Positions 10,031-38,998 of a stretch of DNA of 64,000 nt are shown here, piece after piece. Source of the DNA: Amphiscolops sp. MND2022 (Eukaryota); assembly GCA_964187785.1 (NCBI GenBank), contig OZ076412.1:25606001-25670000 (forward strand). Reading direction: 5' to 3'. The stretch's first letter is position 1. The number at the start of each line of letters is the position of its first letter. Position numbers and translations under genes: made by a program. The notes below the pieces were generated by a model, which saw only the letters and a program-made list of their open reading frames with translations, was not told where the DNA came from and ran no database searches.

Positions 10031-10650
10031 GAGGCATATCATATAACCTTTCAACACCAAGACCCCATGGGTTTTAACCCCATGTCAAATGACTCTGTGG
10101 TCACAATATTTTGACCCTATGACACCATGAGGCATATCATATAACCCTTTGACCCCATGATCCCATGGGTTTTAACGCCATGTCAAAACACCCTGTGACC
10201 ACAAAAATTTGACCCTATGACGCCATACTGATTCGATATTCTACCCCCATGTTCATTTCAGTGTTGATCTTTGAATTATCAATATTAAACGTGCCTCGGA
10301 AATGTCGCCATTTCCTCTAAAGCCCCGCTGCCCCTTGGGGCCTTTATGTCCCCATCTTGCTAAGTGAGGTCGAACAGGAGCAAAGACATAGCGGGAACGG
10401 AGGACGCGAAGCGATCGTAGTGGAAGCTGGTCTTTGCAACGGTGAGGGCGAGTGTGCATACATCGAATATGACCCCACATTATTTTGCTTTAACTCAAAG
10501 ACCTTGATTTCTTCGTGATTTCGTCACCTATTTTCCATATATTTCCTTTAATTTTTCCATGGGTTCCTTTTTCACGGGTTCATAGGGTGCTCTTGGCCTC
10601 TATGGGGTCAGAGGGTTATTTTCCATAGTGTAATGGGGTCAAAGGGTCAA
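10031..10650. mobile_element. Foldback MITE M1 (GACCCC/GGGGTC arms) carrying core A
   Basis: Left arm has a ~99-bp direct repeat (10031-10226); right arm has the inverted motif. Right end is eroded and there is no clear TSD. Confidence 0.6.
10287..10481 (+). repeat. GC-rich core module A, copy 1
   Basis: ~195-bp sequence CGTGCCTCGG..GCGAAGCGATCGTAGTGG..CCCCACATT, seen 6 times in the window. Confidence 0.9.
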
Positions 10651-11012
10651 AAAACAAAACTCTGATCCAAAGATATCAAAGAAATGCCCTTATGAATTTC
10701 AAAGGATCTTCCTCGACTACATGGTTGAGCATTTGAAAAGAAAATGGTTTTTAACGCTGATAGAACAAAACTCATATGGTTCTCTTTGAAAAAGCCAGAT
10801 GTAAAAGTACAACCAAAGTTAGTCTTGGAGGATGAAAACGTTTCATTGACCTTCGAACCGGTCAAAGATCTTGGTATCGTTTTTGTTTCAACCCCTCTCT
10901 TGGACCCCCTACATTAATAAACGAATACATGATGCCTACGGCTGTTTTATCAATCTCTCAAAGCTTCTCTCAAGTCAGCAAAAAACTTTTGCCTACCAAA
11001 CTTACTTTCAAC

Positions 11013-11535
11013 GGTATAAAACCAGTTTGTAGAAAACCAGTTTGTAGAATCCAGTTGGTAAAAAAGTGAGGTTCGGAGAATTTTTTTCTACAAACTGGAC
11101 TCTACAAATTGGTTCTCTACAAACTGGTTAGGTCCAGTTTGTAGGAAACCAGTTTGTAGAATTCTGGAATTAAAAAAAAACAACGAGATCAATAATGTTG
11201 GAATGATGCAAAGTGTAAAGCGTTCCTCGGATATGTCTCCATTTCCTCTAGTGCCCCGCGGCGGGAACGGAGACCGCGAAGAGATCGCAGTGGGAGCTGG
11301 TCTTTGCGACGATGAGGGCGAGCGTGCATACACCGGATATGACCCACATTTCAGTTTTTAGATCTTATTTCTTTAATCTTAGGCGATGGACCTCTCCGGA
11401 TCTTGTGTGAAGGATATCCAGGTTGTAGAATTTGATGATCCAATTCGTAGAATTCAATAATTCAGTTTGTAGAAAAAAAGTTCTACAAACTAGACCACAT
11501 AGAATTCTACAAACTGGTATTCCACAAACTAGACC
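11013..11535. mobile_element. Foldback MITE M2 (CCAGTTTGTAGAA arms) carrying core A
   Basis: GG..CC termini, inverted arm motif, imperfect flanking duplication TACT(T)TCA. Confidence 0.7.
11217..11350 (+). repeat. Core module A, copy 2 (internal deletion)
   Basis: Same ends as copy 1; ~60 bp deleted at GCGG microhomology. Confidence 0.9.
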
Positions 11536-11642
11536 TACTTCATTTCTTATGAATGGCTCTCAAATCTGGCTCCCAAATTTGACAAATATTGAAAAACTCG
11601 AAAAAATTCAAAGCTATGTTTCCAGGTGGATGTCTCGTAAAA

Positions 11643-11996
11643 GGGTGGCTGTAAATAGGTCGAATTTTTCTGGTCGAAAGGACAAAGGTCCAACCTTTTG
11701 ATCGAATTGCAGGGATCCAATGGAATGCGGTCGCATTTTATCGTATGTGTTGTATGGCTCGGTCGCTTGGCCCCCTTCGCCAAGTAGCAACATTGGGGCA
11801 TGGCCATATGGCACGTCGCTCCGCTTCGCTTCGCTTCGCTCCTGCATTCAGGGCACTAGGGGTATGTGAACATATCTGACTACGTTTTAAAAATTTCGAT
11901 CCGAGTTGTTTCGATCCCATTCAAAAATTTGGTATGTCGACCTGATGACTAACTGTGATTTTCGATCCCGTTCCTTCGACCTATTTCCGCCCACCC
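11643..11996. mobile_element. Foldback MITE M3 carrying core B; 9-bp TSD
   Basis: TIR GGGTGGCTGTAAATAGGTCGAA / TTCGACCTATTTCCGCCCACCC. Flanks CTCGTAAAA and CTCGTAAGA. Confidence 0.8.
11743..11877 (-). repeat. GC-rich core module B, copy 1
   Basis: ~135 bp, near-identical to 32129-32257; contains GCTTCGC repeats. Confidence 0.9.
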
Positions 11997-12117
11997 CTCG
12001 TAAGACATCTTATGAAAGTCGTATGATTCATTCAAATCTATTGCCGATTTAGCTTTTGTTTCAGTCAGCTCTGATTTATTGTACTGACCCGAGTGTACGT
12101 CTTTGATCTAATTCATT

Positions 12118-12601
12118 GGGTCTAATGGAATTAGATCTAACTTTCAGATCCAATTTAGGTCTAACTTTAGGTCTAACTTTCAGATCTAATTTTCTCTAAA
12201 ATACTTAGTCTGGCCCCTTTATGATCTAATATGTGATCTGAAAGCGAAAATAAAATGTGGGGCATGTGCGATGTATGCACGCTCGCCCTCACCGTCGCAA
12301 AGACCAGCTCCCACTACGATCGCTTCGCGATCTCCGTTCCCGCTAGGTCTTTGCTCCTGTTTGACCTCGCTTAGCAAGATGGGAATTTAGGTGGCCCCAA
12401 GGGGCCGCGGGGCACTAGAGGAAATGGTGACATATCCGAGGCACGTTTTAAACTTTATATTACTTTTTAGTTTTAGATCCTCATTGACTTATTGTTTTTC
12501 TCAAATTAGATCAAATTAGAAGTTGATTTTTAGACCTATTATTTAGATCAATTTATTTAGATCTCAGTTTTGACCTCTCTTAGATCTATTTCATTAGACC
12601 T
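12118..12601. mobile_element. Foldback MITE M4 (GATCTAA/TTAGATC arms) carrying core A
   Basis: TIR GGGTCTAATGGAATTAGATCTAA / TTAGATCTATTTCATTAGACCT. TSD not convincing. Confidence 0.7.
12254..12448 (-). repeat. Core module A, copy 3
   Basis: Reverse complement of the copy 1 sequence. Confidence 0.9.
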
Positions 12602-12729
12602 GATTCCACGCACTTCACTCTGACATCATCTTCTTGCACTATATGATGAGTTCAAATTCCAGCTTGAACTTTGATGACCTGTTCGGTGTGAGAAAAGACA
12701 CGTTCAACTGTCAACTTCGTCCCACAACT

Positions 12730-13283
12730 GGTAAATGGTCACTTGGCTTAATGCCATTTGGCTTAAAGTCATTTGGCTTAAAACAATTGGTCACTTGTCT
12801 CAATGTTTTTAAGCTAAGTGTCTCAGGTATTGGTCACAGGTATTAGTCATTTGATTCAAAACCACTAGTTGAAAACACGTGGAAGATTTTGTCGAATTTA
12901 TCTTTATAACGTAGTCAGCGTATTTTTATAACATGTCATATCAAGTACCCCTCGGATATGTCCCCATTTCTTCTAGTGCCCTGCGGCCACTTGCGGCCGC
13001 TTATATTCCCATCTTGCTAAGCGAGGTCGAACAAGAGCAAAGATCTAGCGGGAACGAAGATCGCGAAGTGATCGTAGTGGGAGCTGGTCTTTGCGACGGT
13101 GAGGGCGAGCGTGCATACACCGCATATGCCCCACATTATGATATTTCCGGGAGTTGACATATTTATTCCTCGAGTTGGAATGGAGTTGGCTTAATTTTGT
13201 GGTCACTTGGCTTAAAATTTTTAAGCCTAATGACTCAACGAAAAAATTGAGCCAAATGGTATTAAGCCAAGTGACTGGTAACC
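12730..13283. mobile_element. Foldback MITE M5 (TTGGCTTAA arms) carrying core A; 8-bp TSD
   Basis: TIR GGTAAATGGTCACTTGGCTTAATGCCATTTGGCT / AGCCAAATGGTATTAAGCCAAGTGACTGGTAACC. Flanks CCACAACT and TCACAACT. Confidence 0.8.
12943..13137 (+). repeat. Core module A, copy 4
   Basis: Matches the other copies over the full length. Confidence 0.9.
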
Positions 13284-13330: not shown

Positions 13331-13897
13331 TGTACGATCTCTTTTTTTGGCTTCTTCGGATTTTTCTTTTTTTTTTATTGTAGTTCCAGCTTTTTTCTAG
13401 AAAAAGTTAGTTCTCTGTTCTTACAATGTATTCAGCTTCCCTTTTCTACGCGTTGGGTTCGGTTGATGGTGTAGAAGACTTTGTCGATCGTAGAATTTTG
13501 ATATTTTTCTTCAGAAACAGAGAAAAACGAGTTAAGTTGATGATTTTGTTCTAGATTTAAATTAGAGCAAATACAATATTCAACTGAAGTTATATTCAAC
13601 TTCTCGCAAGCAAGTCTCTCGGTTGGTGTGTCAGTAATTTTCCTTCTTGCAATCTATAATTTTGGCACTTCCTGTTTCCCGTTTGTTTGAAGGAAGTGGT
13701 GATCAATATTTATAAAATGCCGCACCAAATATGGTAAAACATGATTATTATGAGAGTTTAAATATTTGATGATTGGTAATAAATTGCTTATTTTGCTGGT
13801 CAAGTTCGATAATCTCTTGGGTGATGACCTTTCCTTGTTGGGTAAGTTCCATCAACGATGGCCTTTTTCAGGTCAATGGTAACATGGATATGTTACA
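13331..13897 (-). repeat. 3' LTR (567 bp)
   Basis: TGTACGATC..ATGTTACA; highly similar to 26267-26630. Confidence 0.95.
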
Positions 13898-14141
13898 CTA
13901 CCCAACTTCAGAAGCTTCCAGTGGGTTTGAAAAATTGACCGGTCGGTATCGTGAAGAAGCAATTTCCAGATTAGGAGTGATCGTTGTGTAGAAAGAAGGA
14001 CGAAAGATGGCGATCCACACGCAGAAGTCCAGGTCAAGGAGAAGGGAGAAAATGAAGAGTCATAGGATATACAATTTGAAAGGGATGATATACAGCTAAA
14101 CAGTCATTGTTTATGATTTTTCAATAGCAGTTGATACATGA

Positions 14142-16486
14142 TTACACATTCATTACGCTTGAATTATATAAGAAAAAGCTCTTTAAAAGATTTTTGTTAT
14201 AAATATTATTTTTCGATTTCATAAAGGGGGCAGGTAATGTATATTGAGCTGGGGCTAGCGTGTCCCTAGTTGAGCCACGTCGTCTGATAAAGATTGTGTC
14301 TGTCTCTCGTTGTTCAATGTCTGTGCTTGCGTTTGTGCCAGCGTTTAACTTGAGCATATGGTCAGAGGCATATTTTTGGCATGTTTTGCATTTATGATAG
14401 AAGAACATGAAAATGAAATGAAGTATCATTGATCCAAAAAATGAAACGATGCTCATTCCAATTGATGTTTTCCAGGTCGAATACGAACTGAGTTCATCCT
14501 GCAGGAGTGGTCGTAATGATCTCATTTTGCTCGTGATGGGTCTCGCTATTTCCATTAGTTTGTCCGTTGATTATAGTTTCGGGCTCGTAAGAAGTTTTTG
14601 CCGAAGTTCTGTCAGCATTTGAACGACTTTGTTGGAAAATATGGCATTTCGTCTACTGGTGGAACTTCGCTCAAAAGACGTTTCAGTGGGTCAGGCAAAT
14701 TAACATGAATTTTGATCGCTGGTATACTTTTACATGTTTGTAGGTCAGATCGAATTGTTATATGTGGTCCCGTGAGTTGTTTTCAACATGCTAATGTAAT
14801 TATGCAAATATTACAACCTGGGTATTTGGTCAAGCCTGTTGCCGTGTTTGAGTCTGAAGTAGTCTCATACAACGTGTAGGCTTTTGTTGCCGATGTCACT
14901 AGCCAAACTCCATAGCCAAGGTTTTCTGCTTTTTCTGTAGCCGGTAGTTCAATCACTTCGGTATCACATTTTTGAATTGATTCTGACGATCCTTTGAAGA
15001 ACAATGTTGCCAAACACGATCCATGACCGCGTTCAGTGGCAATTGAACGATGACAGATTTGATAGGTTGGTGATCCAATGCAATTCACCAAATCATATTT
15101 GCTCAAAAGAGCTGTTTCTAGATTGCTAGATTGTCTTCCGAGATAGCGAGGAACTGAGTTTCTGTTTTCCATTTCATCGCCAGTGTCAGTTCTGGTTGCG
15201 GCATTGGAATCGGTGTTGCTCTATAAACTGTAAGCGATGTTTGTTTTGACGCCAATGGTATTGATAAAGTCATTAGGAGACCTTCTTCCAATGTGATGAC
15301 ATCTGTCAGAAGTTTCGCTTCGTAGTACGCTAGAATTTCTTTTGGTGGAATGGCCAATGTTAAACGATCGTCAGCTTGACCCTGTTCGATAATGACTTCT
15401 TCTAATATCTTCAGTAGTGATTGTCGCGGCACTAGTGACAATGGTAGAAATTGTCCCAAAATTGTTGGTATCGCATTCACAATGTTCAACTGGTAGGCGT
15501 ACAATGAACTACGGTAAGCTTTAATATTTGTATGTGTCATTGTTAACAGTGCTGTCATAGTATCATACTTAAAATTCATCTGCTGTCGTGAGAATAGAAG
15601 TTGTGTAATAGATGAATGTTGTTTTGGAACACAGCAAATTGATTTTCAATTATCTTCCAGTTGTTGTCTTGTGTTTCAGCTAGTTCTTGTTGTATTTGAT
15701 GTAACTTGGAGACTTCATTCGTCAGCAGGTAGATTTTTTCGTTAGATTCGGATCGTAGTTTGTGAACATTCTCAGCGATGTTTTCGGAAATGCGGTCCAG
15801 TCGAAGTATGTTGTTTGCATTTTCCTTCGCTTTGTCTTGACATGAGCCGAAGACTCCTCTAAGTCCGCAGCACTCACTACTGCCTAGCAGAATCCCACTT
15901 CCAAAAAACCAACTGAAGCTAGAGCAGCAAATGCTAATGGCGCTGCTCTCTTTACTCGACTTTGGCTTCCGAATTGTGGTTCTTCGTTAGGATGCAATAG
16001 TATTGAAATTTCGTTACGTAAGTTCTAGAGATCGGTGGAAGCTAATTGTGATTCATTTTGCACGTGATGTAAAATCCAATTAATGTCAAAAACTGAGTCA
16101 TTTGTTGTGAAATTACTGGAGAATGTCAAGTCACAAAATATACTCGGTTCTTTCCAAAGTTGGTGCAAGGCGTGAACTGATTCATTGAGATGTTCGTGCA
16201 ATTGTATGTCCAAGTTCGGAAATGGTACCAGAAATTCAACATTTATGAACTTTTCCGCTAGTAGGATTTTTGTTTCATGATTGAAGATGATACCATTTTC
16301 CAAAAGAGCATTTGCCTCGTGATCAGGAATAATGTCTGATGCCCATTTCGATGAATTGTCAGAAAGAGACAGCGTGAGAAGCCCGGAAATGACTAAAACG
16401 CAAAGAAAGTTTGTTAAAGGTTTTGTTGTGAATGTTTTTTTAGAAGTTGTGTTGTGCCAAGAATGAATTGCCGAAATGTCACCCAC
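14142..16486 (-). pseudogene. env: env-like class I (F-type) fusion glycoprotein, frameshifted
   Basis: Hydrophobic signal-like stretch FLCVLVISGLLTLSLS, furin site RVKR (15947-15958) followed by AAPLAFAALASVG, heptad-like region, Cys-rich region, C-terminal TM SIGMSIVSFFGSMILHFIFMFFY. Confidence 0.85.
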
Positions 16487-16684
16487 AATTTACAGTGCTG
16501 TGGAAACGTCTTGTGCTTTGCCCAAGAGGGAGAGATTGTAACCTGTTCCTCGAGGCACATATTTTGTGCCACCACTACTACCATTGGGCCCAGTGGAGTA
16601 CGGGCAGATCATTCATGGGTGACGCTGTGTATTCTGACAGGCATTCTCGTGCTTTTACTGGTGGTGCGCATGATGCGACGGTAG
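16463..16684 (+). CDS. Small Cys-rich single-pass membrane protein (73 aa), antisense in the LTR element
   Basis: Cys-rich N-terminus with an NVT sequon, TM-like WVTLCILTGILVLLLVV, basic RMMRR tail. Confidence 0.4.
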   Translation: MNCRNVTHNLQCCGNVLCFAQEGEIVTCSSRHIFCATTTTIGPSGVRADHSWVTLCILTGILVLLLVVRMMRR

Positions 16685-16972
16685 AATGTGACTGTCGATG
16701 TTCCAGGAATGAGGTGTGATTCCTCCAGTGGAAGAACTGTCTCTTCAGCCCTGTTGTTTTGCTCTGGTTGCGTTTTTTTTGTTTATTGATTACTTTGATC
16801 AGGATTACATGTTTTTATCAAATACCAGTTAGTTGTTAGCGTAAGAAAGAGCGGATAATAATTAAAGTCTCAACGGTTTAATTTGTTTTTTTTGCGAAAT
16901 ACTTTTAGTGATGATGAAGCAAGATAATTCATTGGAAAATTATCTAGTTGCGTGTTTGAAGCATGTTAAGTT

Positions 16973-17482
16973 TTGCACGTATTTGAGATAGCGATGGCAG
17001 TAAGCAAATTGAATTATCTGATTGAAAATTTCGGCAGCCGAGAAGGTCTAGAGGAACTTGGTTGGCAAAATGTGCCTGTTCTGAATTGCCCCGAAGCCAA
17101 AGATTGGAAGGAAATTATATCATGCGCCTGCAGGAAGAACTTTGGACTTTATGTAGATTCAACCGGAAAATCGTCCTGGTTTCAAAAGCCAATAGCGGTG
17201 AGAAATGCAAATGTGTTTAATTTGAATGTTGATTTTGTGGAAGCGGTCAAAAGGTGCCGCACTGAGAAAGATGTCATGAAGGTTTTCAACAAATTTACAG
17301 AAGCAGGTAAATCGAGGCTCATCAGTAGATTGGGCGATAAGGAGTGGGCGCCTCAATCAAAAGCGTGGAACATGCGTGTGACCGATCTAGCGGAATACTC
17401 AGTTCCCTCAAATCTATCCGGTCACCACAGTAGTGGAATCATAACACTCGGACGATGGCATACCGATGGGAATGTAGAGTGA
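16973..17482 (+). CDS. Hypothetical antisense accessory protein (~165 aa)
   Basis: Open 510-bp frame with globular-protein composition, between pol and env. Confidence 0.5.
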   Translation: MHVFEIAMAVSKLNYLIENFGSREGLEELGWQNVPVLNCPEAKDWKEIISCACRKNFGLYVDSTGKSSWFQKPIAVRNANVFNLNVDFVEAVKRCRTEKDVMKVFNKFTEAGKSRLISRLGDKEWAPQSKAWNMRVTDLAEYSVPSNLSGHHSSGIITLGRWHTDGNVE

Positions 17483-17512
17483 GGAGGGGATGATTCGCTC
17501 TCCTACACTCCT

Positions 17513-18034
17513 GTGGGTTTAAAAATTTTTCTCATCGCCAAATGGGGAAAGTATTCGCAACTTTTGCTGAAAAGCACCAAAACGATGGAGTGCACAGTTA
17601 ATCTGATCCTTAATGGTCCTCCTAAAGGGTGGAAAGAGAATGTTAAGATCTTTGTGTCGGCCAGTGATCTTTTTCTGGCGCAGCCAGCCTTGTGTTGCCA
17701 TTCAGTCCTTACAGTATCAGAGGGACCAGCTTTTGTCACTGGCTGGGAAGCCATGGACAGGAACGATACCAAGCGCAGTCGGCAAACACAGAATTTTTTT
17801 GCCACTGGGCTCTCGGCAAAAACACTCCGCGAGTTGCGGAAAAAAAAGAGTATGAGCCAAATCTCAGCTATCATTGAAAAGAAAGAGGAGGAGGAGGCTG
17901 CAAACAAACCGCAGGAAGAGCAGAGCGAGTCAGAGGCAGCGATGCAATTACGTTCCCTGGTGGAACGTGGACTTGACGTAGTGGCTCCCCCACAAAAAAG
18001 CGGCGTTCCCGAAAGGGGCAAAAACAACAGATGA
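17513..18034 (+). CDS. Hypothetical antisense accessory protein (up to 173 aa, charged C-terminal half)
   Basis: Open frame 30 bp after the previous ORF; LRELRKKK..EKKEEEEAA helix-like segment. Confidence 0.45.
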   Translation: MGLKIFLIAKWGKYSQLLLKSTKTMECTVNLILNGPPKGWKENVKIFVSASDLFLAQPALCCHSVLTVSEGPAFVTGWEAMDRNDTKRSRQTQNFFATGLSAKTLRELRKKKSMSQISAIIEKKEEEEAANKPQEEQSESEAAMQLRSLVERGLDVVAPPQKSGVPERGKNNR

Positions 18035-19627
18035 ATTTGCCAAATGTAAAGAAGAGTATCTTAAAGAAGAAAGGCCTGAGCATTGAATAAACCCTCTGTT
18101 TTTGGTGAGTTTGATCCCTGCGTTTATGATTTTTGTTTTGTTTTACAGAGTTGTGAGTGGACTGAACTGGATAGTGTTGTGAAATGTCATGTGTGAGCAA
18201 CTGTTTGTGTTGGTTGTAAACATTGTTCGTGTGGCCAACTGAAAAAAAAATTTTGTTTTGTTTCTTTTTTTGCATCTCGTTGGTTGCTGAAGTCCTCGGT
18301 GTCAGTATACCGAATTGTCAGGGCTCTTGCCAGGGGGGGAGGTGTTTTGTTTTAACAGTTTTGAAGAGTTGTTGACTAAATGTTTGATTGGTTGGGCGTG
18401 TAGCGTTCGACCCAAAAAAGTTAGCTCTTGAAACGAAATCGCTCGATGGCATTAGACAGTCCAGTGATGTGTACTTTGATCTGATCACGTGGATGTGTCG
18501 AGGCTAGAATTTACGTATTGGTTGAAATTATCTTGATTTGGTATTTTATCGCTCGGTCAAATATTTCTCATTGAGGCAAAAACTTTTACATCGAAAAAAG
18601 TTAGTTCTTTGGAAGAAATCTTAAAATACGGTTTTGGCGACCCGATATGGCCTACTGAGAAACCATCTGACGATTTGGCGAGGATGTATTTTTGATTGTC
18701 CGTCTTTTTGTTTTGAAAATATTGTCTTGTTTTTCATAACATGCTCGTCTTTTTTCCGTTCAAAATTTTTAAGTATATTTTTTTTGAATTTTTGATTGTG
18801 ATTGTGTCCCTGTAATTGGGGTGCTTAGTCAAGTGCAAATGCTCGTTAGGCTCTTAATAATTGATGGGTTGAGAAAGGTCCTGAACGGAATTACAAATGA
18901 AATCCATCCAAAAGTTACTTCCCATGATGTTCAATGGAGGTTTCAAAAGGTAAGTTTTGCTATAAAATATAAAGTATGCGGTGCTGTAGTTTTCTCGCTT
19001 TCAAGCTTCTGCAATCAGCTTCCAGGTTTTGGCAAGAATGATTCCGCATTTTATAGTCTAGTTGTTTTTGTGATGGTATTTGGTGAAAAACAGCGTGAAG
19101 GGAACCCACGAAGGAAAAAAGTTAGTTCTCATCCGAAAGGCGCTCGGTGGCAGAAAGGAAGCCAGCAATGACTTGAATATAAGCGTCTCCAAGATTTCTC
19201 GAGCGCAGTTTTTGCAACCGTTCTTTGTGAAAATGTTTTTTTTCCACAAAATTATGGATTCTCGTGCTATTTGTGTTGGAGCCTTGAATCGTGCGCTCGA
19301 GGCTTTGTAGATCCAGAAACGTTTGTGTTGTTCAAGAGGCGTATGTTCAAAGGAAGTTTGTTGTCAAACACTTGTCACAACCGAAAAAGGTTGTTTTCTC
19401 ATTTTCAGTTTTTCAGTATGCAAAAGATTTTAACTGTAGCTGCAATGCCTTTCCTGCGTTTGCTCGATAGCGTTTTAATCGTTTGCGTTTTCTGATTGTC
19501 GATCATAGTTGTTTGATCTAAGAAAATAATTGGACTTATTTGCCTCACGTTGAAAGGTACTGTTAGTTCTTGTGGTATTTTGTGATTTGGATCTCGTTAC
19601 CGGTTGAGAATGTGTGTTCTGTTGCAA

Positions 19628-22600
19628 TCATTCTACCGCTTCTAAAGTTTTTCTATTAGCTTCCAATTGTGAAGACAAAAGTGCTCTTCGAGCAGCTCTA
19701 GCTTGATCACCTAGAGTTCGCGCCATTTTGTCATCATCAGAGAACCAAGACACCGTGTGTGATGTCGGTGTTGCCGTTGGTGACGGAACGCGAGGATGAA
19801 TTCGCGCATGTAGTCTAGGTCGCTGTGTTTCTGATTGCACATCAGGTTGCTCAAAGAGACGTTCCAAATTAAAGTCTGTTGTGTTGTCTCTTGGAGCGTT
19901 TGGTTCTCTTCTAGTGAGCGCCAATGCTGGTTGTACTATTGGAAATAGTAGCGTGGTTGTCACTTCATTTTGTGGTTCACTGTCCTGCAGGTTGAGTGTT
20001 TCAACGTTTGTGTGATGTTCATTCAACAGCTGTGGCAATTCATTGTCGAATAGACCTGGTTAACTCCGAAATTGACTTAGGGATGGATCAGGTTTGAATT
20101 CGGAAGGATGAAGTCTCGGCAAATCTTCAACGGTATATTGTGGTTTTATTGGTCTAATATGGAGTCTTTGAACGCATTGAGTGAATGGCGGTCCTACCTT
20201 TCGAATGATATAATTCGATTTCGTGAGAACCTGCTCGACTCGGTAGAGAGGCAGCCATGACTGCACTGTTTTAGACATAGTGCTAGACTGATCAGTGAGC
20301 AACGGGTTCAAAAGCAAGCAGTATTCGTGTTTTTTCAACGGTTGAGCTTCCGCTTTTTGATCATAGTAGTTTCGGTAACGATGATATGAGTTCAAAATGC
20401 GAGATTTTGTTTCGCAAAACTGCTGAACAAGAGTGTCTTGCAAGTCATTCACAAAGTCGCTCGATGGTTGAGACGAGTTTACATGTTTACTGAATCTCGA
20501 ATCAATGGGTTTGGAGGGATCTCGGCCATGATTTATTGAACTTGGCGTGGTACCGATTGAGACATGGTAAGATGTGTTGTGTACAAACGTTGCAATATCC
20601 ACAAACTTATGCCAGTTAGACCATGCACTGGTTGAGTTAATCTTCAAAATCCGTTTGAATGCACTATGTGCTCTCTCAACTACACCAACAACTTGTGCGT
20701 GTTTCAAAGATGCATGATTTAATTTATTTTCTAGCATGTTTGTCAACTCGTGCATTAGCTTGGATGTGGAACCTGTACCTAAATCTGCTAGAATAGTTTT
20801 AGGTATATAACTGTGTTTCAGAAATATGGAAACTAGCGCTTTTGCTACATTCTCTGCGCTGATGCTAGACAGCGGCACCGCGAACAGGTATTTCGAAAAG
20901 ACGTCGATTCCTGTTAGTGCGTATTTGTATACCGGTGCAATGAATTGACCAACGAGATCAATCTGCATCAAATCTCCGGGGAAGGTATGATCAGATGCTA
21001 ACGATTCTAGAGGTGGTCGCAACCTTTTCTGCTGAATGTTTTTCGTTTGCAAACAAGTTGAGCAGTTTTTCACATAGTTGAGCAAATATTCCGTGAAGCT
21101 TGGAAAATAGAAACGTTTTCGAAATTCGTATACTATTTTATTGATGCCCAGATGATCACTAGTTGGGGAATTGTTTAGTCTGTATAAAATTTCGGATCGA
21201 AGATGCTTTGGAACACAGTATTGTAAATGCGAGACAACTCCAACGTCGTTGAAAAACTTTCTGTAGAAGATACCATTTTCGAGTACCAGGCGACTGCGGT
21301 GTTTTGCATACTTCTTGATTTCTTGGGTTTCGTAGGTTATGTCAATGTCCAAGTTTTCTTCTAGCCATTTACGAACTTTGCGCAGTGCAGGGTCTTTCAA
21401 TTGTTCTGCTTTCAGGTTTAAGGTTGTGGCATGTGCAGAGATCTCAAAATCATTTAGTGGATCAGGTTCGTAGAGTGCGTTGTTTTCTGCTCTTGTTAAA
21501 CTTGTGTATTCCCAGTCGCACATGCTTTCTTTTTCACGAATAAAATTCGTAAGCTCGGGGAATTTTTCTTCTATTCCTGAAATTTTGTTCAAAATTTTCT
21601 CATATTCCTCATGGGTAGAGTTTTTATCCAAGGTTGTGTTGTTGAATTGAAGCTCGATTATTGAGATATCTGGTGTTTTGGCTGTCATCGAAACTTTTAT
21701 CTCTCAGATTGGTAATGAATCCGTTAGTCCGAGCTGTAGCGTTGCTCCTGGTTCTGTTTCCATGCGTGAAAGAAAGTCTGCGGCTGCATTTTCAATTGTG
21801 ATTCATTAAAGGTTTTTGAACCGAAAGAAACTGGTGCGTACTTTCTCGTTTTTCATTCTGCCGTCTTGTCAATGTAGTCCTCTATCATGAGTACAAAACC
21901 ACTACAATGGTAGCTAACATCGCAAAGGATAACGTACTGTTGATTTGGTTATGCCCAACGCAATGTTGTTGTCGTTGCTTTTAAAAGATCAGTTTTAATT
22001 TGCTTAAAATTTTCGATATGGTCATCTTGAACTCTGAAATCGACATCCTTCGCATAAATTTGTAAAAGGGTAGCAGCTTCTCGTTTAACTTTGGTATGAA
22101 ATTTCGAAAAAATTGTGTGAAGCTGATGAGTCTTTTGACTTGTTTCACCGTTTGTGGTATTTTGACTTTGTCTAGAAACTTTTCTATTTTCTTCGTTTCG
22201 GGAGTAATTCCCTCAGATGTGATCGTATTGCCTAAGAAAGAACTTTGCGACATTCCAAACTGACATTTTTCTGGTGAAAGCTTGAGTCCGGAACTTCGGA
22301 TACTAGCGAAAATTTTGGTCAGGTTTTCTTTGATTTCCGCAAAGTTTTCTGCTCCACTCCCACTGTCGTCCATGAATTGGGTGCAGAGGTTAGCCGCAAG
22401 ACATTGATCCAAGTATTTTCGTACAAAGGCACTAAATCCCGTAACGGATTTACTCAAACCTTGTGCCAAAACTTTGTATGCGTATGTCCTGGATACGAAA
22501 TTGAATGCAAGCAATTGTACCGAGAGCGAGTCTGCCATTTGAACGCAGTGGTACGCTTGCGAACAATCTAATTTTGTGAACAATTTCTTTCCCGCAAAAT

Positions 22601-24400
22601 GGTTAACAGCGTCCGTCATATTGGAAATAGGAAAATTGTGGTTGGCATATTCATGTCGCAGCAAATGATTTATTTTTCTGAGGTCATGCAAAATTCGCAA
22701 TCTTCCCGACGGCTTTCGCTGAGCGAAAATTGGGCTACTGTACTTCGAATTTGTTAGTGTTGTTATATTGACGTAGTATTGCAAAAGAGCCAATTCAACC
22801 ATCATTTCGTCTCGGAGGTGTATTGGCGTTGGCGGACTTTGCATATAAACTGCATTCGAGTGTTTGGGCGTCAATTTAATTTTCATTTCGGTGTTATAAC
22901 CAACGTCGAACCTGTGTTTGGCAAAAGTATCTTCAAATTCGATGAGAAGGTGTTCGAGCTCGCTGATTTCATCTGATGTCAAAACCGAATTCTTCCAATC
23001 GAACTTAGATAGAAATTCGTTCCGATCCGCTTCATTTTGTTTAGGGTTTTTTTGTTCGAGTTGCTGGAAATGGTGAAGTTGTTCATAAATTTTACGCGGT
23101 TTTGGTGTCAATTGTTCAGGATTATCACACGTTTCAGGTGTGGGAAACCATAAATTTTTGTAGTCAGGTTTCGGTTTTTGTGGTTGAAGTACTTTACCTT
23201 TGTCTTCACATTGGACTAGTTGGTTTATTTCCTGAAATAGCTCACCTTTCATAGCTTCATCAAGTGTCAAAGTTTCTGCCGGTATAGGTATCAACGATTA
23301 AGCTTCATCGAGAGTTAAAATCTGGAACTTTGCGACTGGTTGATTTTTTGAGACAGTGACTACATAATCTGTTAAATTCAAAGCCAGAATTTGTAATTCA
23401 TTATTACTTGCTATTGTTGTTAGACAAGATGACAAGCAAAGATCATGTTTCCGTTCAAACTGTACATCAGGTAAAATCATTCCCGTCATTCCTTCGAATT
23501 TTTTATCGTTTCGAGAAAATTTCAAATTTAAAACTTCTTGAGAATTAGGCTTGATCGTGACTTTTTGAGTTGTTTCAGCAACAATTTTCGTTTTGGAGTG
23601 AATTTTCCGCCTGGTTCCAGCTTTTTTTATTTCGTTCAGTTATAAAGTTATATCAGGAAACTTGAGTAACTTTTCACCTGGAAACATTCCTACTGGATAT
23701 TTTGAAAAAAAAAGAGTTCCCAAAATAACACTATTCATTGTTGGGAGAATCATGAAAGTTTCTTCAAATTCGCTGTCATGAATAAAAAATTTCAAAACGA
23801 TTTCGCCGAGTACTGGTAATGATTTGCCAGAGGCCATCCGAACTGTTTTATATTTCGCATTTTTGACCAATGTTTTCATTACGTCCACATCCGTCATCAG
23901 CTCTGTATAAAGAGACTCTGGGATCGCACTAGAGCACGCACCTGTATCTATCAACGAGCGTCGCCGAAGTTTTGAGCTAAACTTCAAGGGTACATCAAGT
24001 AAGGGGTACATCACCTTCTAACGGAATTACTGCATCCAAAAGATTTCTAGAATCTTCTGAATCAAAAGTGTCTTGCAGTTCATGAACAATTTCGTTAAGT
24101 TGCGATAATGGGATGTTTTGTTTCACTTTTTTCTTCGTAAATTGTCTACATTCTTCAGCTAGATCTTTCGAAATTTTTGCTTTCAAATTTTTATCGTATT
24201 GACCTTCTTCGAATTGTTGGTCCACATGCTTTAAAGCACCCTGTAAGGCTAACTCTTTTGTTTTCAATAGATGTCGCAGGGTATCATTTTTATTTAATTT
24301 TTTGGATTTTATATTCAAGTTTTCTAGATCTTTTTCTAAAGAACGTTTATCTGCTAAGTATGGTGATGAGGATGATTTTGGGAAAGACCTGTTTTTCTAG
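19628..24400 (-). pseudogene. pol: pol (PR, RT, partly deleted RNase H, integrase), frameshifted
   Basis: LIDTGACSS protease; RT RKPSGRLRILHDLRKIN, LDCSQAYH, QFMDD; CDVS RNase H; integrase H..CSTC, QIDLVG, ADLG, VERAH. Confidence 0.95.
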
Positions 24401-24410
24401 TGTGGAGGAT

Positions 24411-25618
24411 TTAGTTTTTTTGTTCTCTTGAGAACGGGATTTTTGCACCACGTTGCGATTTTGGGCTTGCTGCTACACAGGCTCGGGCCATATGATCAGG
24501 ACCACCGCATCTATGACATATTATTTTAGTGTAGTGCATGTATTGTGATCCACCTGTGGCATTTAACGGTTCCGGATTTTCAATCTGGCCGTGACTCTGA
24601 TGGAAGTTTTGCGCTTGGTAATATCCTTGCGCCAAACTAGCATCATTATTTTGGGGTGCGTGAAACCGTTGTCCATACCGTGGTCGATAGGATTGGTTTT
24701 GATAGGACAAGTACGCCCGGTTTTGATAATATCTTTGCCTCGTTGGTAATTCGAGCCGAATTGATTGCCTCGATAGTGATTCTGTTGATATCTTGGCAAA
24801 TAATTTTGTGCTCGAGGATAACCGCTTGAATTAGTCTGAATGGCATTCAAAGACAGACTTTCATCCACTTTTTTAATGAAATTGTTCATTTTGTCCTCCA
24901 TTGCACTATGAGTTTCAGTAATTTTAGCCAAAACATTCAAGTAATCTTCACTTTGTACGTTACTGACTTCGCTGAATGCGTTTGCGTTCCAATCATCTAC
25001 TTCGCAAATCTGATTCAAATGAAGCGTACGACGTGCTAAGGTGCAAAGGTCGCCTACGGTTCTTTCCTCTGGTTGTTCTGGTAATTTTCGTCAAATAAAA
25101 TTTGGCATTGCTTTCAAGAATAGCCGTTTTACATGTTGCTCTCGTTGCAGTTGTGAAAAACTGAGCCTTTCAGTGTTAGCAGCAGTTTCAGCTGCAACTC
25201 TATCTCTCTCACCATCTGTTTGATCTCTAGCAGCCTCTACTGGAAGGGCTTCAGCGTCTGGATAAGCGGAGTTTGCTAAATTTTGTAATTTCACTAAGAA
25301 TGCTTCAGGATTTTCTGTTTTGTGATTGTATTTCATGTTTTCAATTTGAATAATGTACAATTCTTTATACGTTGGATTACAAAAATGCGTTTTCAAAGCG
25401 TTTAGACATCTATTTAAATTTCCGCGTGTGTCAGCGTCATGAGTATGAAAATATTGCAAAGCGTTGTCTTTTAGGTGAAGTTTTAAGTAGTCAACTTGAT
25501 TTGCAGCGTCTACATTTGCTACTTGAATGATGCTGCGGAGTTGTCATTCAAAATCGCGCCAATTTTCTGATTCACCGCCGAACTGTTTTAAACTGATTGT
25601 AGTGTTCGCTGCGGCCAT
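24411..25618 (-). pseudogene. gag: gag with terminal zinc knuckle, disrupted
   Basis: MAAANTT start; FGGESENWRDFE, LHLKDNALQYF; CHRCGGPDHMARAC knuckle. Confidence 0.9.
24414..24420 (-). promoter_or_regulatory. Candidate -1 ribosomal frameshift heptamer A_AAA_AAC
   Basis: In-phase X XXY YYZ heptamer immediately before the gag stop TAA. Confidence 0.55.
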
Positions 25619-25876
25619 TTTTTTAATTCATGCACAGTTTACTGTTCACTTGTTTTTCGCTACAATGTGGGTTCAAGTTTATCCACAGATAAATCACGGA
25701 TGATAGGTGAAAAGATGAACAATTAACATAGATGAAATCAAGTGAAGTATGACTCACCAATGATGACTCTCAATTCACCCTTCATGACCTTTCGTGAACG
25801 TGTTGTGGCGATAGTTTCAAAGTTCCCCAAAGTTCGTCACCGTATTTGGTTGATTGTAGTTATGGTGACTTCCTCG

Positions 25877-26173
25877 TCAATCCAGTGGTAAAAAATTCTC
25901 CAAGTATCCGAGCAATTCTTCAAATTCGTGGAGACTGTTGACGTCTCGATTCAGATAGGGCACGTAGTTGTACAAGATTTCCTCCAATTCCTTCCAAATT
26001 GGTGTGTGTTTGTGGACAAGCAAATGAAAGACTTCGTATGGCTGTGTTGCTGTGATGCCAAGAAGCAAAATTGGTTTTCCGCAAGACCAAAAAATTCTTC
26101 GTATCGTGAGATGATCGCCAACTGATGAGGGCCAAAAAATGTCAACGATGTGTTCTGCACACTCGTGGTCCAA
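25877..26173 (-). CDS. Hypothetical leader ORF upstream of gag (98 aa, non-ATG start in the track)
   Basis: Open frame between PBS and gag with protein-like composition (IWKELEEILYNYVPYLN). Confidence 0.35.
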   Translation of the reverse strand: MDHECAEHIVDIFWPSSVGDHLTIRRIFWSCGKPILLLGITATQPYEVFHLLVHKHTPIWKELEEILYNYVPYLNRDVNSLHEFEELLGYLENFLPLD

Positions 26174-26250
26174 GTAGTGTTGAGGAAGAGCCAGTTTTGT
26201 CGTGTTCTTCTAGCTATCGTTGATTGGCTTAGTGCTGAGTGTTTGTCTCC

Positions 26251-26266
26251 GGCACCCTTGTCACCA
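26251..26266 (-). promoter_or_regulatory. Primer binding site TGGTGAC.. (tRNA-Trp-like start)
   Basis: TGG-initiated sequence abutting the 5' LTR. Confidence 0.7.
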
Positions 26267-26630
26267 TGTACGATCTCTTGTTTTTGGCTTCTTCGGATTT
26301 TTCTATTTTTTTAAAATGTAGTTCCATTTCAATTTCTCGCAAGCAAGTCTCTCGGTTGGTGTGTCGATCTTTTTCCTTCTTGCAATCTATAATTTTGGCA
26401 CTTCCTGTTTCCCGTTTGTTTGAAGGAAGTGGTGATCAATATTTATAAAATGCCGCACCAAATATGGTAAAACATGATTATTATGAGAGTTTAAATATTT
26501 GATGATTGGTAATAAATTGCTTATTTTGCTGGTCAAGTTCGATAATCTCTTGGGTGACGAACTTTCCTTGTTGGGTAAATTCCATGAACGATGGCCTTTT
26601 TCAGGTGAATGGTAACATGGATATGTTACA
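26267..26630 (-). repeat. 5' LTR (364 bp, ~200 bp shorter than the 3' LTR)
   Basis: Same termini as 13331-13897; lacks the segment ~13390-13595. Confidence 0.95.
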
Positions 26631-31790: not shown

Positions 31791-32011
31791 TAGAATTATG
31801 AGAATCCTATAAATATTATTTAGGTAGTTTTCCCCACCTAAGATGGGATCATATACGGTGTATGCACGCTCGCCCTCACCGTCGCAAAGACCAGCTCCCA
31901 CTACGATCGCCTCGCGATCTCCGTTCCCGCTAGGTCTTTGCTCCTGTTCGACCTCGCTTAGCAAGATGGGAACATAAGCGGCCCCAATGGGCCGCGGGGC
32001 ATTAGAGGAAA

Positions 32012-32358
32012 GGGTCAGGGACATTTCGTCACCAGCCATTTGGGCGACAATATGGCGTCGGTCACATGGGCGACAAAAGTGTCGACCAAATGGGTTGATC
32101 AAATATGTGATATATTTGAAGAGGTTAGCATATTTGTTTTATGGCTCGGTCGCTTCGCTCCCTTCGCCAAGTAGCAACATTGAGGTATGGCCATATGGCA
32201 CGTCGCTCCGCTTCGCTTCGCTCCTGCATTTAGGGCACTAGGGGTATGTGAACATATTTGGCCATTTAGTCTACGGGACATTTGGGCGACATTATTGTCG
32301 CCGAAATGGGCTGAAATTTTTGTCGCCCAAATGGCTGGTGACGAAACGTCCCTGCCCC
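32012..32358. mobile_element. Foldback MITE M6 inserted into core A, carrying core B; 8-bp TSD
   Basis: TIR GGGTCAGGGACATTTCGTCACCAGCCATTTGGGCGACA and its inverse; perfect AGAGGAAA flanks (32004-32011, 32359-32366). Confidence 0.85.
32129..32257 (-). repeat. Core module B, copy 2
   Basis: Near-identical to 11743-11877. Confidence 0.9.
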
Positions 32359-33047
32359 AGAGGAAATGGGGGGCATATCCGACGGCCAAAAAACATTGTT
32401 ATTTGAAAACGCTAGGTATTTGAAAACATGGATTCGATCTCATTTTCTTTGACCATTTTACTCCGATCTCAGTGACAGATTGCATATTCGCGCAAATTCA
32501 TTCGATCCAAACTCCCACCGCCGTTTGAAAGAAATAGAAGCTCAGTCATGAGAGTCCAGAATCATATCATCAAATCAATCTTTCGACATAGTTTTACTCG
32601 TACCATTAGCATCTGCGAAACGCTGCTAGGACTACCTCTGGACATTTACAATGATGCCATAAAAATCAAATTTGTCATCAAAGTCAAAAGAGCCAATGAC
32701 TTGGTGAGTAATACCCACTCTCTTTTCATCTCCAACCGAAGTAAAGCTGCAGCATTAGAAAGTGGGGAAACGGAAATCGGACTAAAGAAATAGAACTAAT
32801 GGAATTAGGACTAACATGCTCAAAATTTCTTAAACGTTCATGTGAAATAGAACTAATTTCGTATAATCTCAAACAGGAATTACAACTAATTTGTTACGGG
32901 AAATGGAACTAAAAACAGGAATTAGAACTAATTTGTCACGGGAATTGGAACTAAAAAAGTGAGAATAGGACCTGACATGCGGAATGAGACCCAAGGGGAG
33001 AACGGAATAGTATCTAAAGGAATAATATCTAAAATTTTTCAAAGTAT

Positions 33048-33244
33048 AAAACGTGCCTCTGATATTTCCTCATTTCCTCTAGTGACCCGCGGCCCCTTGG
33101 GGCCGCTTATGTTACCATCTTGCTAAGCGAGGTCGAAGAGGAGCAAAGACCTAGCGGGAACGGAGATCGCGAAGCGATCGTAGTGGGAGCTGGTCTTTGC
33201 GACGGTGAGGGCGAGCGTGGATACACCGAATATGCCCCCACATT
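33048..33244 (+). repeat. Core module A, copy 6
   Basis: Full-length match to the other copies. Confidence 0.9.
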
Positions 33245-33575
33245 AGAAGGGGAAAGTACTGAAAATTTTGTGAGTCATTTACGAAACGTAAAGTTTTATT
33301 CTTGAATAAAATGATTTGAGATCTGACTTTTTTAGAAAATCAATGGAAGGAGAAAAATAATGAATGTATCAATTTTTTATTGATCAATTGTATTACGTTA
33401 CTTTTGTACTACTTTCATTGTACTACCACAAAATTTGAATTTTGTACCATGTTTTTATCCGCTTCTGCGTTTTTTTGTTGTAACTTTTTTTATGTTGGAT
33501 GTTTACAGTGGTAGTAGTAGTAGTAAAAGACTCAATTCCTTTTTAAAGGGTGATACGACATCAAAATGTAATGAG

Positions 33576-35714: not shown

Positions 35715-36240
35715 AGAGGAAGCGAAATCAAAGTATATAGGTTAGTGATCAGAAAATAGAACAAGGCTAATTGACAGGGCTAAACATTGACTATCACAGA
35801 ACACAAGGTCAAGATTGTTTTGATTTTTATGTGTAGGCTCATGAACCATCTGAACTAGGTCTTTTTCAAGAATAAAGTCAAGGAAATAACGTTCCATTGA
35901 AGAAGTAGAAGAATAGGATTTCCAGTCGACATTTGGGAAGTTGAAATCACCAAGAATGTAGACATTATGGGTACCAGTGTAGCCGAATTGCAGCAAAATA
36001 TCAACAAATTTTTTGTAATAGGCTTCCATACATCGGACTAATTCTGAAATAACCACAGAATATTTAGAAGAGTAGTAGGGAGGATTGTATACCAATATAA
36101 AGAACGAGGGAACATCACTGAGAATTACACAAGCAATGGCGAAACCGAATTCCTCAATAGTAATATCAATATACAGTAAGGGAGAATCATTGACGATTAC
36201 AAGTAGAAACAGCTTTAGTTGTCAATGTTAAACTGTCACA

Positions 36241-36288
36241 ATATGTTTACAAACGTTTTCGACTATGAAAAGTCATCATCAGGCATAA
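36241..36288 (-). ncRNA. Minimal type I hammerhead ribozyme-like motif
   Basis: CUGAUGA-U-GACU[UUUCAU]AGUC-GAAA followed by palindromic AACGUU. Confidence 0.7.
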
Positions 36289-36395
36289 TAATCTGAAAAT
36301 ATAAACAACATGAAAGCACCAAACTAAATGGAGATTTATAAATTTGATAGAACGTAAAAAATGCAATGCGTAGACGTTATAAATCAATTGAACTG

Positions 36396-38898
36396 CTAGA
36401 ACTTCAACGTCAACTGCCTTCTGCGATACTCGTCGCGCTGGTTGAGGGCTGGACGGAACTTCTGAATATATAGCGCTTCAAGAGTCAATAATTTGGAGTC
36501 GGAACGGGCAAAATCAAGAATCTGAGGTTCAGGAAAAGCGGTATTTGGAGAACATTGTGATAAATGTTGGGTTACTGGTGCAGACGATCTCTGATGCTCG
36601 TACATTCTTGTCGATAGATGACGGACAGTTTGTCCGACATAGCTGGCATTACAGCCAGGACAAATTAACTGATACACGACAGAACTACGAAGCATTTTTG
36701 AGAAACTCGACTTCAATGAAGGCAATAACGACTTCAGCTTCCTGGTGGTGAACACTACCTTCACAGGAACAAATGATTCAAGCTTCCGTTTGAAATCATC
36801 AGAGATGCGACCACGATATTGAGTTGAAAACCACAACTTACGTTCTTCGGTTGTATTTTTGGGGCTGTTCGTAACCTCGAGTACAATTTTATCCACCGTG
36901 TCTTTCAAAATGGGGTTGTAAAAACCTTTCGGGTACTGGTTAGCCGTCCAAATCGCTTTGGATGCCTCTATACCTTCATGAAAGTTGTTCCAATTCGATG
37001 TTGCGTTGAAAACACGATGTACATGTCCACTAATGATATTTCTCTTATACCTCATAGGGGCAAGTGCACGAAACGAGAGGGTTGTTCCAGTGTCTGTAGG
37101 TTTTCTATACCACCTTGTTGAAAGTCTGTTACCACTCTGCGACACCACCATATCCAGAAAAGGTATTTCATGATTGAGCGATCTTTCTATCGTGAACTTG
37201 AGGTTCACATGCATTTGGTTGAAATAACCTAGTAAACTGTCAACTTCCGTACTTCGAACTGTTCGGATAATGTCGTCTACATAACGTGCGAAGAGTTTGC
37301 ACCCACTTTTATGATTGAGACAGATGTTGCAACACCATGGATCTTCCTCAGAAAGTGCCCTAAACTCATTCAACGATAAACTGGAGCATTTGCGGTGAAA
37401 CCAGAGGTCACAACTGTCACATTGGATGGAATAACCTCTATAAGTAACTGTTTTATTGCAGATACCACACAAGCAATTAGCATGTTTCGCCATAGTACCC
37501 TGGTCACATTTTAGTCTATTTTCAAAATTTTTCAACCATAAGTTAGCAAGAATAACAGAAAGTGATGCCCCCATGGCCACACCATCTTTCTGGACGAACC
37601 ATTTCCCATCCACCATGAACTTCACGTTTTCACGGCTAATTTCATTAGCTCGTGGAAGGTGTTCTGAGGCATTTTAGGTCTGTGTTCAGATGCATACAGC
37701 TTAGCAAGAGCAAAATCGATAGCTTCGTCAATAGGGACATTCGTATAGAGGCTTTTCACATCAAATGACACAATTTTCTCGTCATCAGATAATACGACAG
37801 TCTCAAGTAGGTGTTTTACTTTCATTGTAGATGTTTCTATGCTGGCGCCAGGTAAATTAACAAAGAAATCCGAGATAAACTGGTTGATGTTAGCGTAACA
37901 AGACCCCGGAAGGGACAATACTGGCCTTAAGGGTATACCATCTTTATGCACTTTTGCTAATCCATACAGACGAGCCGGTTGACTACCAGAACTACGTAAC
38001 TTGTTGTAAACACTCGAACCTAACTGGCCGTGTTTCTTGAGGTATTCCAGTTTCTTGTTAAAGGCGTCCTCCGTTCTCTGTAAAAGATGTTTTTTGCCAC
38101 TTATATCAGTTACCTCCGAAAACTGCTCACCGGTTGTTACATCATTGAGTTTATCAGAATACTGTTGTTTTGTCATTATACAAAAACCGCAACCTTTGTC
38201 AAAAGGAACAGCCATCAGGTCATATTCTTTAAGGAATTTGCAAGTTTTCAAATACGATCTATCCGGTCGTTGGGTGCTAGCTTTCCGAATGTATGACACC
38301 GATAACGCATTGAGGTTGTTAATTGTGCCACTAGTATTTTGAGGGCTATGTTTCACCTGACACATCAATCTGTCCATATCAGCGAGAAAGGACATTTCGT
38401 TGAATTTGTCCAAAACAGGGTGTTTCGGACCACGCGATAGGACATCAAGCACGTAGTTGGGCGGTTTCACATCTGCTAAGACAACTACGTTATCAGATCG
38501 CTCAGCCAACGGCTTGTCCTGATCAACAGCCAGTTTTTTCAATTTTGCACGGTGTTTGTTTCTCAGCAACTTAAAGTTTAGTTTCAAACTTTGTCGTATA
38601 TAGAACGATACAGATACCAAAAGCTTATCCGAAAAAGCAGACGATACTCCTTGTCGGGCACAGCTAAGTTTTTCTTCGGTCTGGTTTCGGGCCAGACGTG
38701 CCTTTGCCAACTCGCTTCTCAGCAATTTTTCTGGAAATCATGAACAATCGTAGGCTCAAAACACCCATTTTCAGGTACGCGGAACTTCAGGAACTTAGGG
38801 ATGATGTCATTTTTTAGACACTCCGATAGAAAGTTAATCCGTGCAACATTGTTAGAGTATTTCGCTACAGCACTTTTGTACCGCGAGAATAAATCCAT
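36396..38898 (-). CDS. PLE RT - GIY-YIG protein with PHD insertion (two 1-nt frameshifts in A-runs)
   Basis: FDVKSLYTNVP, QKDGVAMG, YVDD, IPFLD, WYRKPT, VVYQLICPGCNASYVGQT. PHD at 37320-37469. Confidence 0.9.
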
Positions 38899-38998
38899 TT
38901 CTGTTTTGTACGAATAAGTTTTTCGAATATACAGTAAGGGAGAATCATTGACGATTACAAGTAGAAACAGCTTTAGTTGTCAATGTTAAACTGTCACA

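Follow-up and report, generated by a model that had tools for sequence, protein, structure and literature searches.

The 64,000-nucleotide stretch of the Amphiscolops sp. MND2022 genome analysed here (contig OZ076412.1, positions 25,606,001 to 25,670,000 of the forward strand; called the window, in whose numbering positions are given) contains a 13.3-kb Ty3/Gypsy-type element bounded by long terminal repeats (LTRs), which occupies 13331-26630 on the minus strand and is flanked by a 5-bp target duplication. Between its pol and env-like genes, and antisense to them, lies a cassette of two genes, one for a small cysteine-rich peptide (open reading frame A, ORF-A) and one for a predicted JmjC-fold 2-oxoglutarate (2OG)/Fe(II) oxygenase. 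Sequence comparison with related elements indicates that this antisense JmjC cassette is real, under selection and exchangeable, and that it is broken in the present copy. The features of the element, with the evidence for each, are as follows.

13331..13897, minus strand: 3' LTR of an env-type Ty3/Gypsy element, 567 bp, with the spacer motif once, at 13402
14145..16489, minus strand: env-like gene, broken, facing ORF-A head to head (named from its position and hydrophobic anatomy)
16435..16443, plus strand: splice-acceptor-like site just 5' of the ORF-A ATG (TTYAG-type pattern)
16463..16684, plus strand: ORF-A, intact, 73-aa Cys-rich peptide (invariant Cys; ratio of nonsynonymous to synonymous substitution rates, dN/dS; helix model)
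16994..18090, plus strand: gene for the JmjC-fold 2OG/Fe(II) oxygenase, broken here (alignment, predicted fold)
18086..18091, plus strand: candidate poly(A) signal, an AATAAA that overlaps the JmjC gene end and has a T-rich tract after it
18100..19560, plus strand: spacer between JmjC and pol, likely non-coding, with a 13-bp motif at 18416, 18596 and 19117
19566..24011, minus strand: pol (protease, reverse transcriptase, and integrase with a long C-terminal extension), broken (Pfam RVT_1, rve, Integrase_H2C2, gag-asp_proteas)
24414..25618, minus strand: gag, broken (weak zf-CCHC match in the gag of a sister element)
26267..26630, minus strand: 5' LTR, 364 bp, internally deleted, with a TGG-starting primer-binding-site-like sequence next to it on the inner side

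The assignment to Ty3/Gypsy rests on the LTRs, the target duplication, the gag gene and the order protease, reverse transcriptase, integrase. The two LTRs are 96.8% identical over 308 bp, the 5' LTR being internally deleted, and stops and frameshifts interrupt gag, pol and the env-like gene alike. In relatives the env-like frame is open over about 780 aa; as the protein has no match in Pfam or in a sequence search of the PDB, the label env rests on position and hydrophobic anatomy.

The plus strand of the cassette region holds stop-to-stop frames at 16970-17479, 17483-18031, 18788-19168 and 19172-19492, in addition to the 73-aa frame at 16463-16684. The first two lie in one frame and are separated solely by the stop at 17480-17482, and in a 97%-identical sister both halves read as a single 346-aa ORF. 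The JmjC gene of the window copy is broken by three lesions, namely this stop, a substitution of the first iron ligand, which leaves the iron triad incomplete, and a frameshift near 18,000 by which the basic C-terminal motif ends up in another frame. The preliminary description of this DNA had proposed a multi-gene antisense cassette of plus-strand ORFs that remain open while gag, pol and env are broken. The antisense arrangement and the presence of more than one gene stand, with two genes taking the place of five ORFs; openness holds for ORF-A, the only intact gene of the window cassette, and fails for the JmjC gene (its 16973-17482 and 17513-18034), which is broken like gag, pol and env. Because of its three lesions, the cassette did not outlast those genes in this copy, so that preferential survival of the antisense ORFs is not borne out here. 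The plant context invoked for such ORFs gives way to an animal one, as the host carries what we take, from their motifs, to be KDM4-, KDM5- and KDM6-like genes of animal type.

The JmjC protein and its predicted fold

The main antisense gene is predicted, from modelled structure and conserved residues, to encode a JmjC-fold 2OG/Fe(II) oxygenase that is probably closest to the KDM7/KDM2 enzymes. Searched against the genome, the two halves of the window gene give 84 and 82 matches, with identities of 22-100% (these are matches, not copy numbers). The protein is about 350 aa long and forms a single domain. The alignment took in all but one of the 22 long open frames listed, the exception being L115, whose core is deleted; T157, H160, E162, K177 and H236 are invariant in all 21 of these copies, which are 24-97% identical. 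Of these residues, the two His and the Glu make up the iron triad, and the Thr and Lys are the 2-oxoglutarate ligands. In public relatives the first, second and third iron ligands are kept in 85 of 97, 91 of 101 and 89 of 98 aligned stretches, respectively. The last 60 residues contain 7-22 Lys or Arg and form a basic C-terminal tail.

The AlphaFold model of the protein has a pLDDT of 83.8 and a pTM of 0.81, and the structure prediction and Foldseek search that the preliminary description had proposed return the JmjC fold, a double-stranded beta-helix, for this gene. Among the Foldseek matches listed, ranks 1-24 are all KDM7, PHF8, PHF2 or KDM2A (best E 9e-10), and the top four in VIA-align are ceKDM7A, PHF2 and two KDM2A structures with Z 13.5-14.5, the alignment to ceKDM7A being reported with Z 14.5 over 258 residues at a root mean square deviation of 4.2. 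The best match in the ESM Atlas is a JmjC cluster (0.96). A deeper profile that includes distant public relatives places KDM7 proteins in six of seven PDB rows with the triad in register, at E 0.08-1.5. Pfam PF02373 scored above its cut-off in none of eight family proteins and in none of 15 public relatives (best E 0.034), and Pfam and PDB sequence searches with the single gene and with 12- and 21-row profiles found nothing. The family has probably been overlooked in repeat annotations because it is missed by Pfam.

Direct profile comparison with two candidate donors, the host KDM5 gene and a transposon-borne KDM2/7-like JmjC gene, gave weak results, with probabilities of 1% and 8%, and points to neither as the donor. 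Dozens of near-identical KDM2/7-type JmjC genes with an HVD motif occur elsewhere in the genome (L133-L156, L162, L163, L166), where they adjoin unclassified transposase-like ORFs and have KDM2A and PHF8 as best PDB matches. An outside relative of the element-borne JmjC gene described here (L190:636-1214) is seemingly interrupted in its catalytic core by a short intron or a frameshift.

Selection on the cassette

Purifying selection was estimated as dN/dS by the uncorrected Nei-Gojobori method. In the nine of 18 JmjC pairs with informative dS (0.07-1.9), dN/dS is 0.12-0.36, with p from 5e-3 to 1e-43; three of the remaining pairs are saturated and six close pairs give 0.40-0.64, five of these not significant. 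For ORF-A, dN/dS is 0.15-0.32 in five pairs; a sixth pair could not be aligned. Of the six LTR pairs compared, three show 99.5-100% identity, and the JmjC frames of the elements concerned are open. The comparison with related elements proposed in the preliminary description thus comes out in favour of an antisense accessory cassette between pol and env that is kept across relatives under purifying selection, in its JmjC gene and in ORF-A alike; for the frame at 18821-19495, the same comparison finds conservation confined to near-identical copies of one subfamily.

Occurrence across element classes

Surroundings were read at 40 matching sites, which were picked by their JmjC gene, so the counts describe carriers and do not address the share of elements without the gene. 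Thirty sites are Gypsy elements of the env group, recognised by env, pol or both; five are BEL/Pao elements (Pfam Peptidase_A17), three are of Polinton type, a nested site is ambiguous, and another is left unassigned. The JmjC gene is antisense to pol or env at all 35 assignable LTR-element sites, each of which also has the aORF-3R placement (antisense, between pol and the 3' LTR, kept in most copies). Of the Polinton-type sites, two lie beside a gene for a protein-primed polymerase and the third is an inverted partial copy nearby. In this Polinton-type element (L020:2373-3083, minus strand; L023; L024), a second, degenerate cupin-like ORF without a Pfam match lies between polymerase and JmjC.

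Public collections contribute 353 representatives at E up to 0.001, none of the ten looked up having an informative name. Ten metagenome contigs match the JmjC gene; two have ORF-A upstream, and one has env head to head. In a sister element at 32.84 Mb of C6 (L017:9186-9974), the cassette is duplicated, and gag and most of pol are missing next to the 5' LTR; this element is a deleted derivative that retains env and the antisense region.

Exchange of the cassette

By sequence comparison, the JmjC cassette is swapped between near-identical backbones. The elements L087 and L119 share 90-96% DNA identity with the window element across gag, pol and env; from about 16,360 to 19,340 they have almost no DNA match to it, apart from one 52-bp stretch. 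L087 and L119 are 96-97% identical to each other outside the cassette; between their JmjC proteins, compared over 173 codons, identity is 52% and dS is saturated. Overall, backbones with 90-97% DNA identity carry cassettes without any DNA match and with 40-52% protein identity. At L095, an env fragment nearly identical to those of L091 and L093 accompanies a distant JmjC gene. In the JmjC tree, in which long branches meet, two starred clades each hold cargo of BEL/Pao together with cargo of Gypsy elements. At L164:4430-5290 and L165:4508-5404 (C7, C12), in a related Gypsy-env family, the same antisense slot is taken by a different JmjC gene, which has the HxD motif, is Pfam-positive (30.3 bits) and is preceded by a signal-peptide version of ORF-A. 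One site with a close backbone, L167, gave no JmjC match within the stretch read.

ORF-A and expression signals

The ORF-A family comprises peptides of 61-105 aa with a hydrophobic C-terminal helix plus a basic tail, and C3, C12, C13 and C35 are invariant in 14 of 14 aligned copies. In the model, the transmembrane helix at 51-72 is confident and the ectodomain is of low confidence; no Pfam family and no usable ESM Atlas match were found. ORF-A precedes JmjC in most Gypsy carriers (the detection filter caught 14 of 19 loci) and was not seen in BEL/Pao or Polinton-type carriers among the loci listed. It is likely a virion or cell-surface accessory protein, and because it is tied to env-bearing elements, a role in particles or in cell-to-cell spread is suggested.

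A splice-acceptor-like TTYAG site is found no more than 32 nt from the ATG in 12 of 13 ORF-A and 10 of 13 JmjC genes, as compared with 116 of 1115 control ATGs (about 10%), the pattern having been chosen after sequences had been viewed. AATAAA or ATTAAA occurs at -60 to +400 of the JmjC ORF end in 13 of 19 copies, a count without a formal control. In the three BEL/Pao carriers measured, the JmjC ATG is 53-86 nt from the 3' LTR. The 3' LTR is a candidate antisense promoter, which fits these three carriers; in the window element, env lies in between. Both the acceptor-like sites and the BEL/Pao spacing would fit a transcript that starts antisense in the 3' LTR and is spliced to one or the other gene, or else trans-splicing of a leader.

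The spacer between JmjC and pol

The plus-strand frames at 18400-18700 and 18821-19495, read in the preliminary description as further broken protein-like frames, are present and show no sign of being genes. A 225-aa version of the 18821-19495 frame (ORF-D) finds only five near-identical places in the genome (12 matches). This frame was rejected as a gene, being absent outside the subfamily and having many frameshifting indels and non-conserved start codons. The break at 19169 is common to three of the four close copies read (the window, L014 and L167, as against L012). The uncorrected dN/dS of ORF-D, 0.41-0.59, becomes about 1.1 and 0.8 once transition bias is accounted for.

The spacer is likely a degenerate, repeat-like non-coding array, judging from its motifs and periodicity. 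The 13-bp motif has three copies in the spacer and one in the 3' LTR, that is, four where 0.5 would be expected. A variant one base longer occurs in the spacer of L087, L119 and L169 and again 4.8-5.3 kb upstream, a site that is the LTR in L087 and L119. The LTR and spacer motifs vary in step between subfamilies. The motif tracks the spacer and not the JmjC type, as L087 and L119 share the motif and not the enzyme. A period of 170-195 bp scores above every shuffle in 10 of 19 Gypsy spacers, none of five BEL/Pao spacers and none of four controls; L107 (6234-6923) has a clear 182-bp array, and in the window a period of about 180 bp is not significant (6, against a shuffle mean of 3.4 and maximum of 11). 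In one element an 868-aa endonuclease/reverse-transcriptase-like ORF of non-LTR type is inserted in the spacer (L099:6550-9160).

Host and surroundings

The host KDM5-like gene (L127:1-3147) is a single uninterrupted frame of more than 1000 codons (1435 in one reading), which suggests few introns. Elsewhere in the window, 36168-39225, 41827-46554 and 47190-63957 hold local duplications with 2.4- and 2.8-kb spacing, 100% identical over 300-bp references, together with a dispersed family of 50-150-bp repeats in both orientations. A second family of short repeats lies at 10271-13163 and 31829-33255.

Proposed function and alternatives

Working copies of the cassette very probably encode an active 2OG oxygenase that is useful to the element. 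As to its role, we consider it somewhat better than an even chance that the protein is a nuclear demethylase without a reader domain, which lowers repressive histone methylation, keeps the element active and is exchanged as host silencing changes. In copies with open frames, the two genes would supply a membrane peptide and a stand-alone predicted JmjC enzyme from a separate antisense mRNA, with a promoter in the 3' LTR or upstream and splicing onto the acceptor just before each ATG. The basic C-terminal tail would mediate nuclear import, and the enzyme would remove histone methylation such as H3K9me2 or H3K27me2; with repressive marks lowered, the element would stay transcribed, and conflict with host silencing would drive the exchange of cassettes. 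Because it has no reader or DNA-binding domain, the enzyme would act broadly or through a recruiting partner. The anti-silencing role guessed at in the preliminary description has so gained a concrete candidate, a KDM7/KDM2-like JmjC enzyme by predicted fold.

Several observations weigh against this reading. Sequence identity to any solved JmjC protein is 7-14%, Pfam and phmmer do not recognise the family, and the Foldseek TM-scores are only about 0.4. The KDM7/KDM2 lead is small, JMJD5 (Z 13.5) tying with KDM2A and TYW5, JMJD6 and FIH following at 12.9, 12.8 and 12.6, and the position ten residues after the first His is Tyr in KDM2A and Ser, Thr or Ala here. A PHD, CXXC or zinc-finger domain for targeting is missing from the JmjC protein. 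The JmjC tree brings long branches together, the window JmjC start is among the three of 13 that lack the acceptor pattern, and the pairs behind the uncorrected dN/dS values are not independent. Close decayed sisters show no selection signal for JmjC or env when transition bias is allowed for, in a test without power (JmjC 0.83, env 0.75).

Because the structural margin is small, the main rival is an active JmjC oxygenase with a non-histone substrate, which it would hydroxylate or demethylate; candidates are a host defence protein, a tRNA, a translation factor, and RNA or Gag of the element itself. This is possible, with the balance tilted against it. Methyl-arginine marks in the PIWI-interacting RNA pathway are an example of a possible host defence target. 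Such a substrate would suit the missing chromatin reader, the presence of JMJD5, TYW5, JMJD6 and FIH within 2 Z units of the top, and the occurrence of the family in Polinton-type elements with their different life cycle, and an RNA-directed 2OG enzyme has a precedent in Gypsy elements, the orchid AlkB N6-methyladenosine (m6A) demethylase (PMC9289625, in the text available). However, KDM7/KDM2 proteins come first in three independent comparisons, the basic C-terminal tails suggest nuclear import, and JmjC genes of KDM2/7 type can be recognised in further mobile elements of this genome, all of which speak for chromatin. A chromatin enzyme could also serve another purpose: to open integration sites, to reprogram germ cells that have been infected or, jointly with the antisense RNA, to dampen expression of the element itself. 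The lack of a sequence-specific targeting domain would allow this, and antisense orientation can itself yield double-stranded RNA and self-regulation (PMC7264820, available part), but rapid cassette swapping and the independent recruitment of two JmjC lineages would fit conflict better than self-restraint, and we hold such purposes to be quite unlikely.

A reading of the JmjC gene as a passenger, which would have been captured or inserted as a nested sequence and would do nothing for the element, is hardly credible. It is true that the gene is broken in the window and in many other copies, and that L167 lacks it in the stretch read; yet the invariant catalytic residues and the low dN/dS have already largely refuted a passenger, position and orientation are fixed throughout the assignable LTR elements, and the same layout recurs on outside contigs. 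Returning to the demethylase proposal, an extended form of it, in which a stand-alone, unannotated JmjC eraser family is exchanged among env-type Gypsy, BEL/Pao and Polinton elements and is paired, in the Gypsy elements, with a nucleosome-spaced (about 180 bp) array of LTR-shared motifs marking the element's own chromatin for demethylation, as an enzymatic animal counterpart of the plant VANC system, is in our view doubtful.

Significance and comparison with known systems

The gene occurs in three unrelated element classes, it is swapped between near-identical backbones, and its slot can be filled by a second JmjC lineage; these findings point to counter-defence genes that the elements draw from a common pool and that evolve under conflict. 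The question of whether animal retroelements encode their own silencing erasers becomes directly testable with one purified protein, and a compact demethylase of about 350 aa without reader domains could serve as a useful tool. The literature search, which covered mostly papers outside subscription journals, without their supplements, turned up no LTR element with a JmjC gene, and neither did word searches of PMC5408684, PMC9289625, PMC6338049, PMC11105155 and PMC13524379. The term JmjC is absent from the first two of these, and a word search of the last, a survey of env-carrying metazoan Gypsy elements, gave no JmjC, antisense or accessory gene.

The KDM7/KDM2 proteins (ceKDM7A, PHF8, KDM7A, PHF2, KDM2A) share with the element-encoded family the predicted fold and the pattern T-x-x-H-x-(D/E)-x-G-G ... 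G-x-K ... P-x4-H-x-V-x-T, with a His-to-Lys spacing equal to that of KDM2A. Unlike them, the present family has Glu (HxE) instead of Asp as second ligand, lacks PHD and CXXC domains, is only 9-14% identical, is encoded by mobile elements and is missed by the Pfam JmjC model.

Antisense additional ORFs are described in plant and fungal LTR elements (Grande gene23, RIRE2, Retand and Boty), where the Grande product is nuclear and has its own promoter and where, in the available part of the source, no enzyme function is assigned to such ORFs (PMC7264820). They resemble the present cassette as antisense genes downstream of pol that are kept in most copies; here, in contrast, the element is an animal one and has env too, and one of the ORFs is a recognisable, predicted chromatin-type enzyme with intact catalytic residues in its open copies, common to other element classes. 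In orchid Ty3/Gypsy elements, the AlkB m6A demethylase is an extra ORF (PMC9289625, text available in part) and hence likewise a 2OG/Fe(II) oxygenase fixed in a Gypsy lineage, but with an AlkB fold, an RNA substrate and a recent capture. The endogenised giant viruses of Amoebidium carry KDM4-like JmjC-only genes proposed to counter host chromatin (PMC11244446, as far as available), which are also reader-less JmjC genes on a genomic parasite; theirs, however, are KDM4-derived, have introns and belong to giant DNA viruses, not to retroelements. Bdelloid rotifer retroelements share ORF3 cargo, including GDSL, DEDDy and small transmembrane ORFs (PMC5408684, accessible portion), and thus also have accessory enzymes and small membrane ORFs common to diverse retroelements, though the enzymes differ. 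Finally, the VANDAL factor VANC is an element-encoded anti-silencing factor that binds its motifs directly and is paired with variable non-coding tandem repeats (PMC5735166, partial text). VANC is not described as an enzyme in that text and no DNA-binding domain was found in the JmjC protein, but the two systems are alike in having non-coding tandem repeats that vary between related elements, represented here by the repeat array and the motif shared with the LTR.

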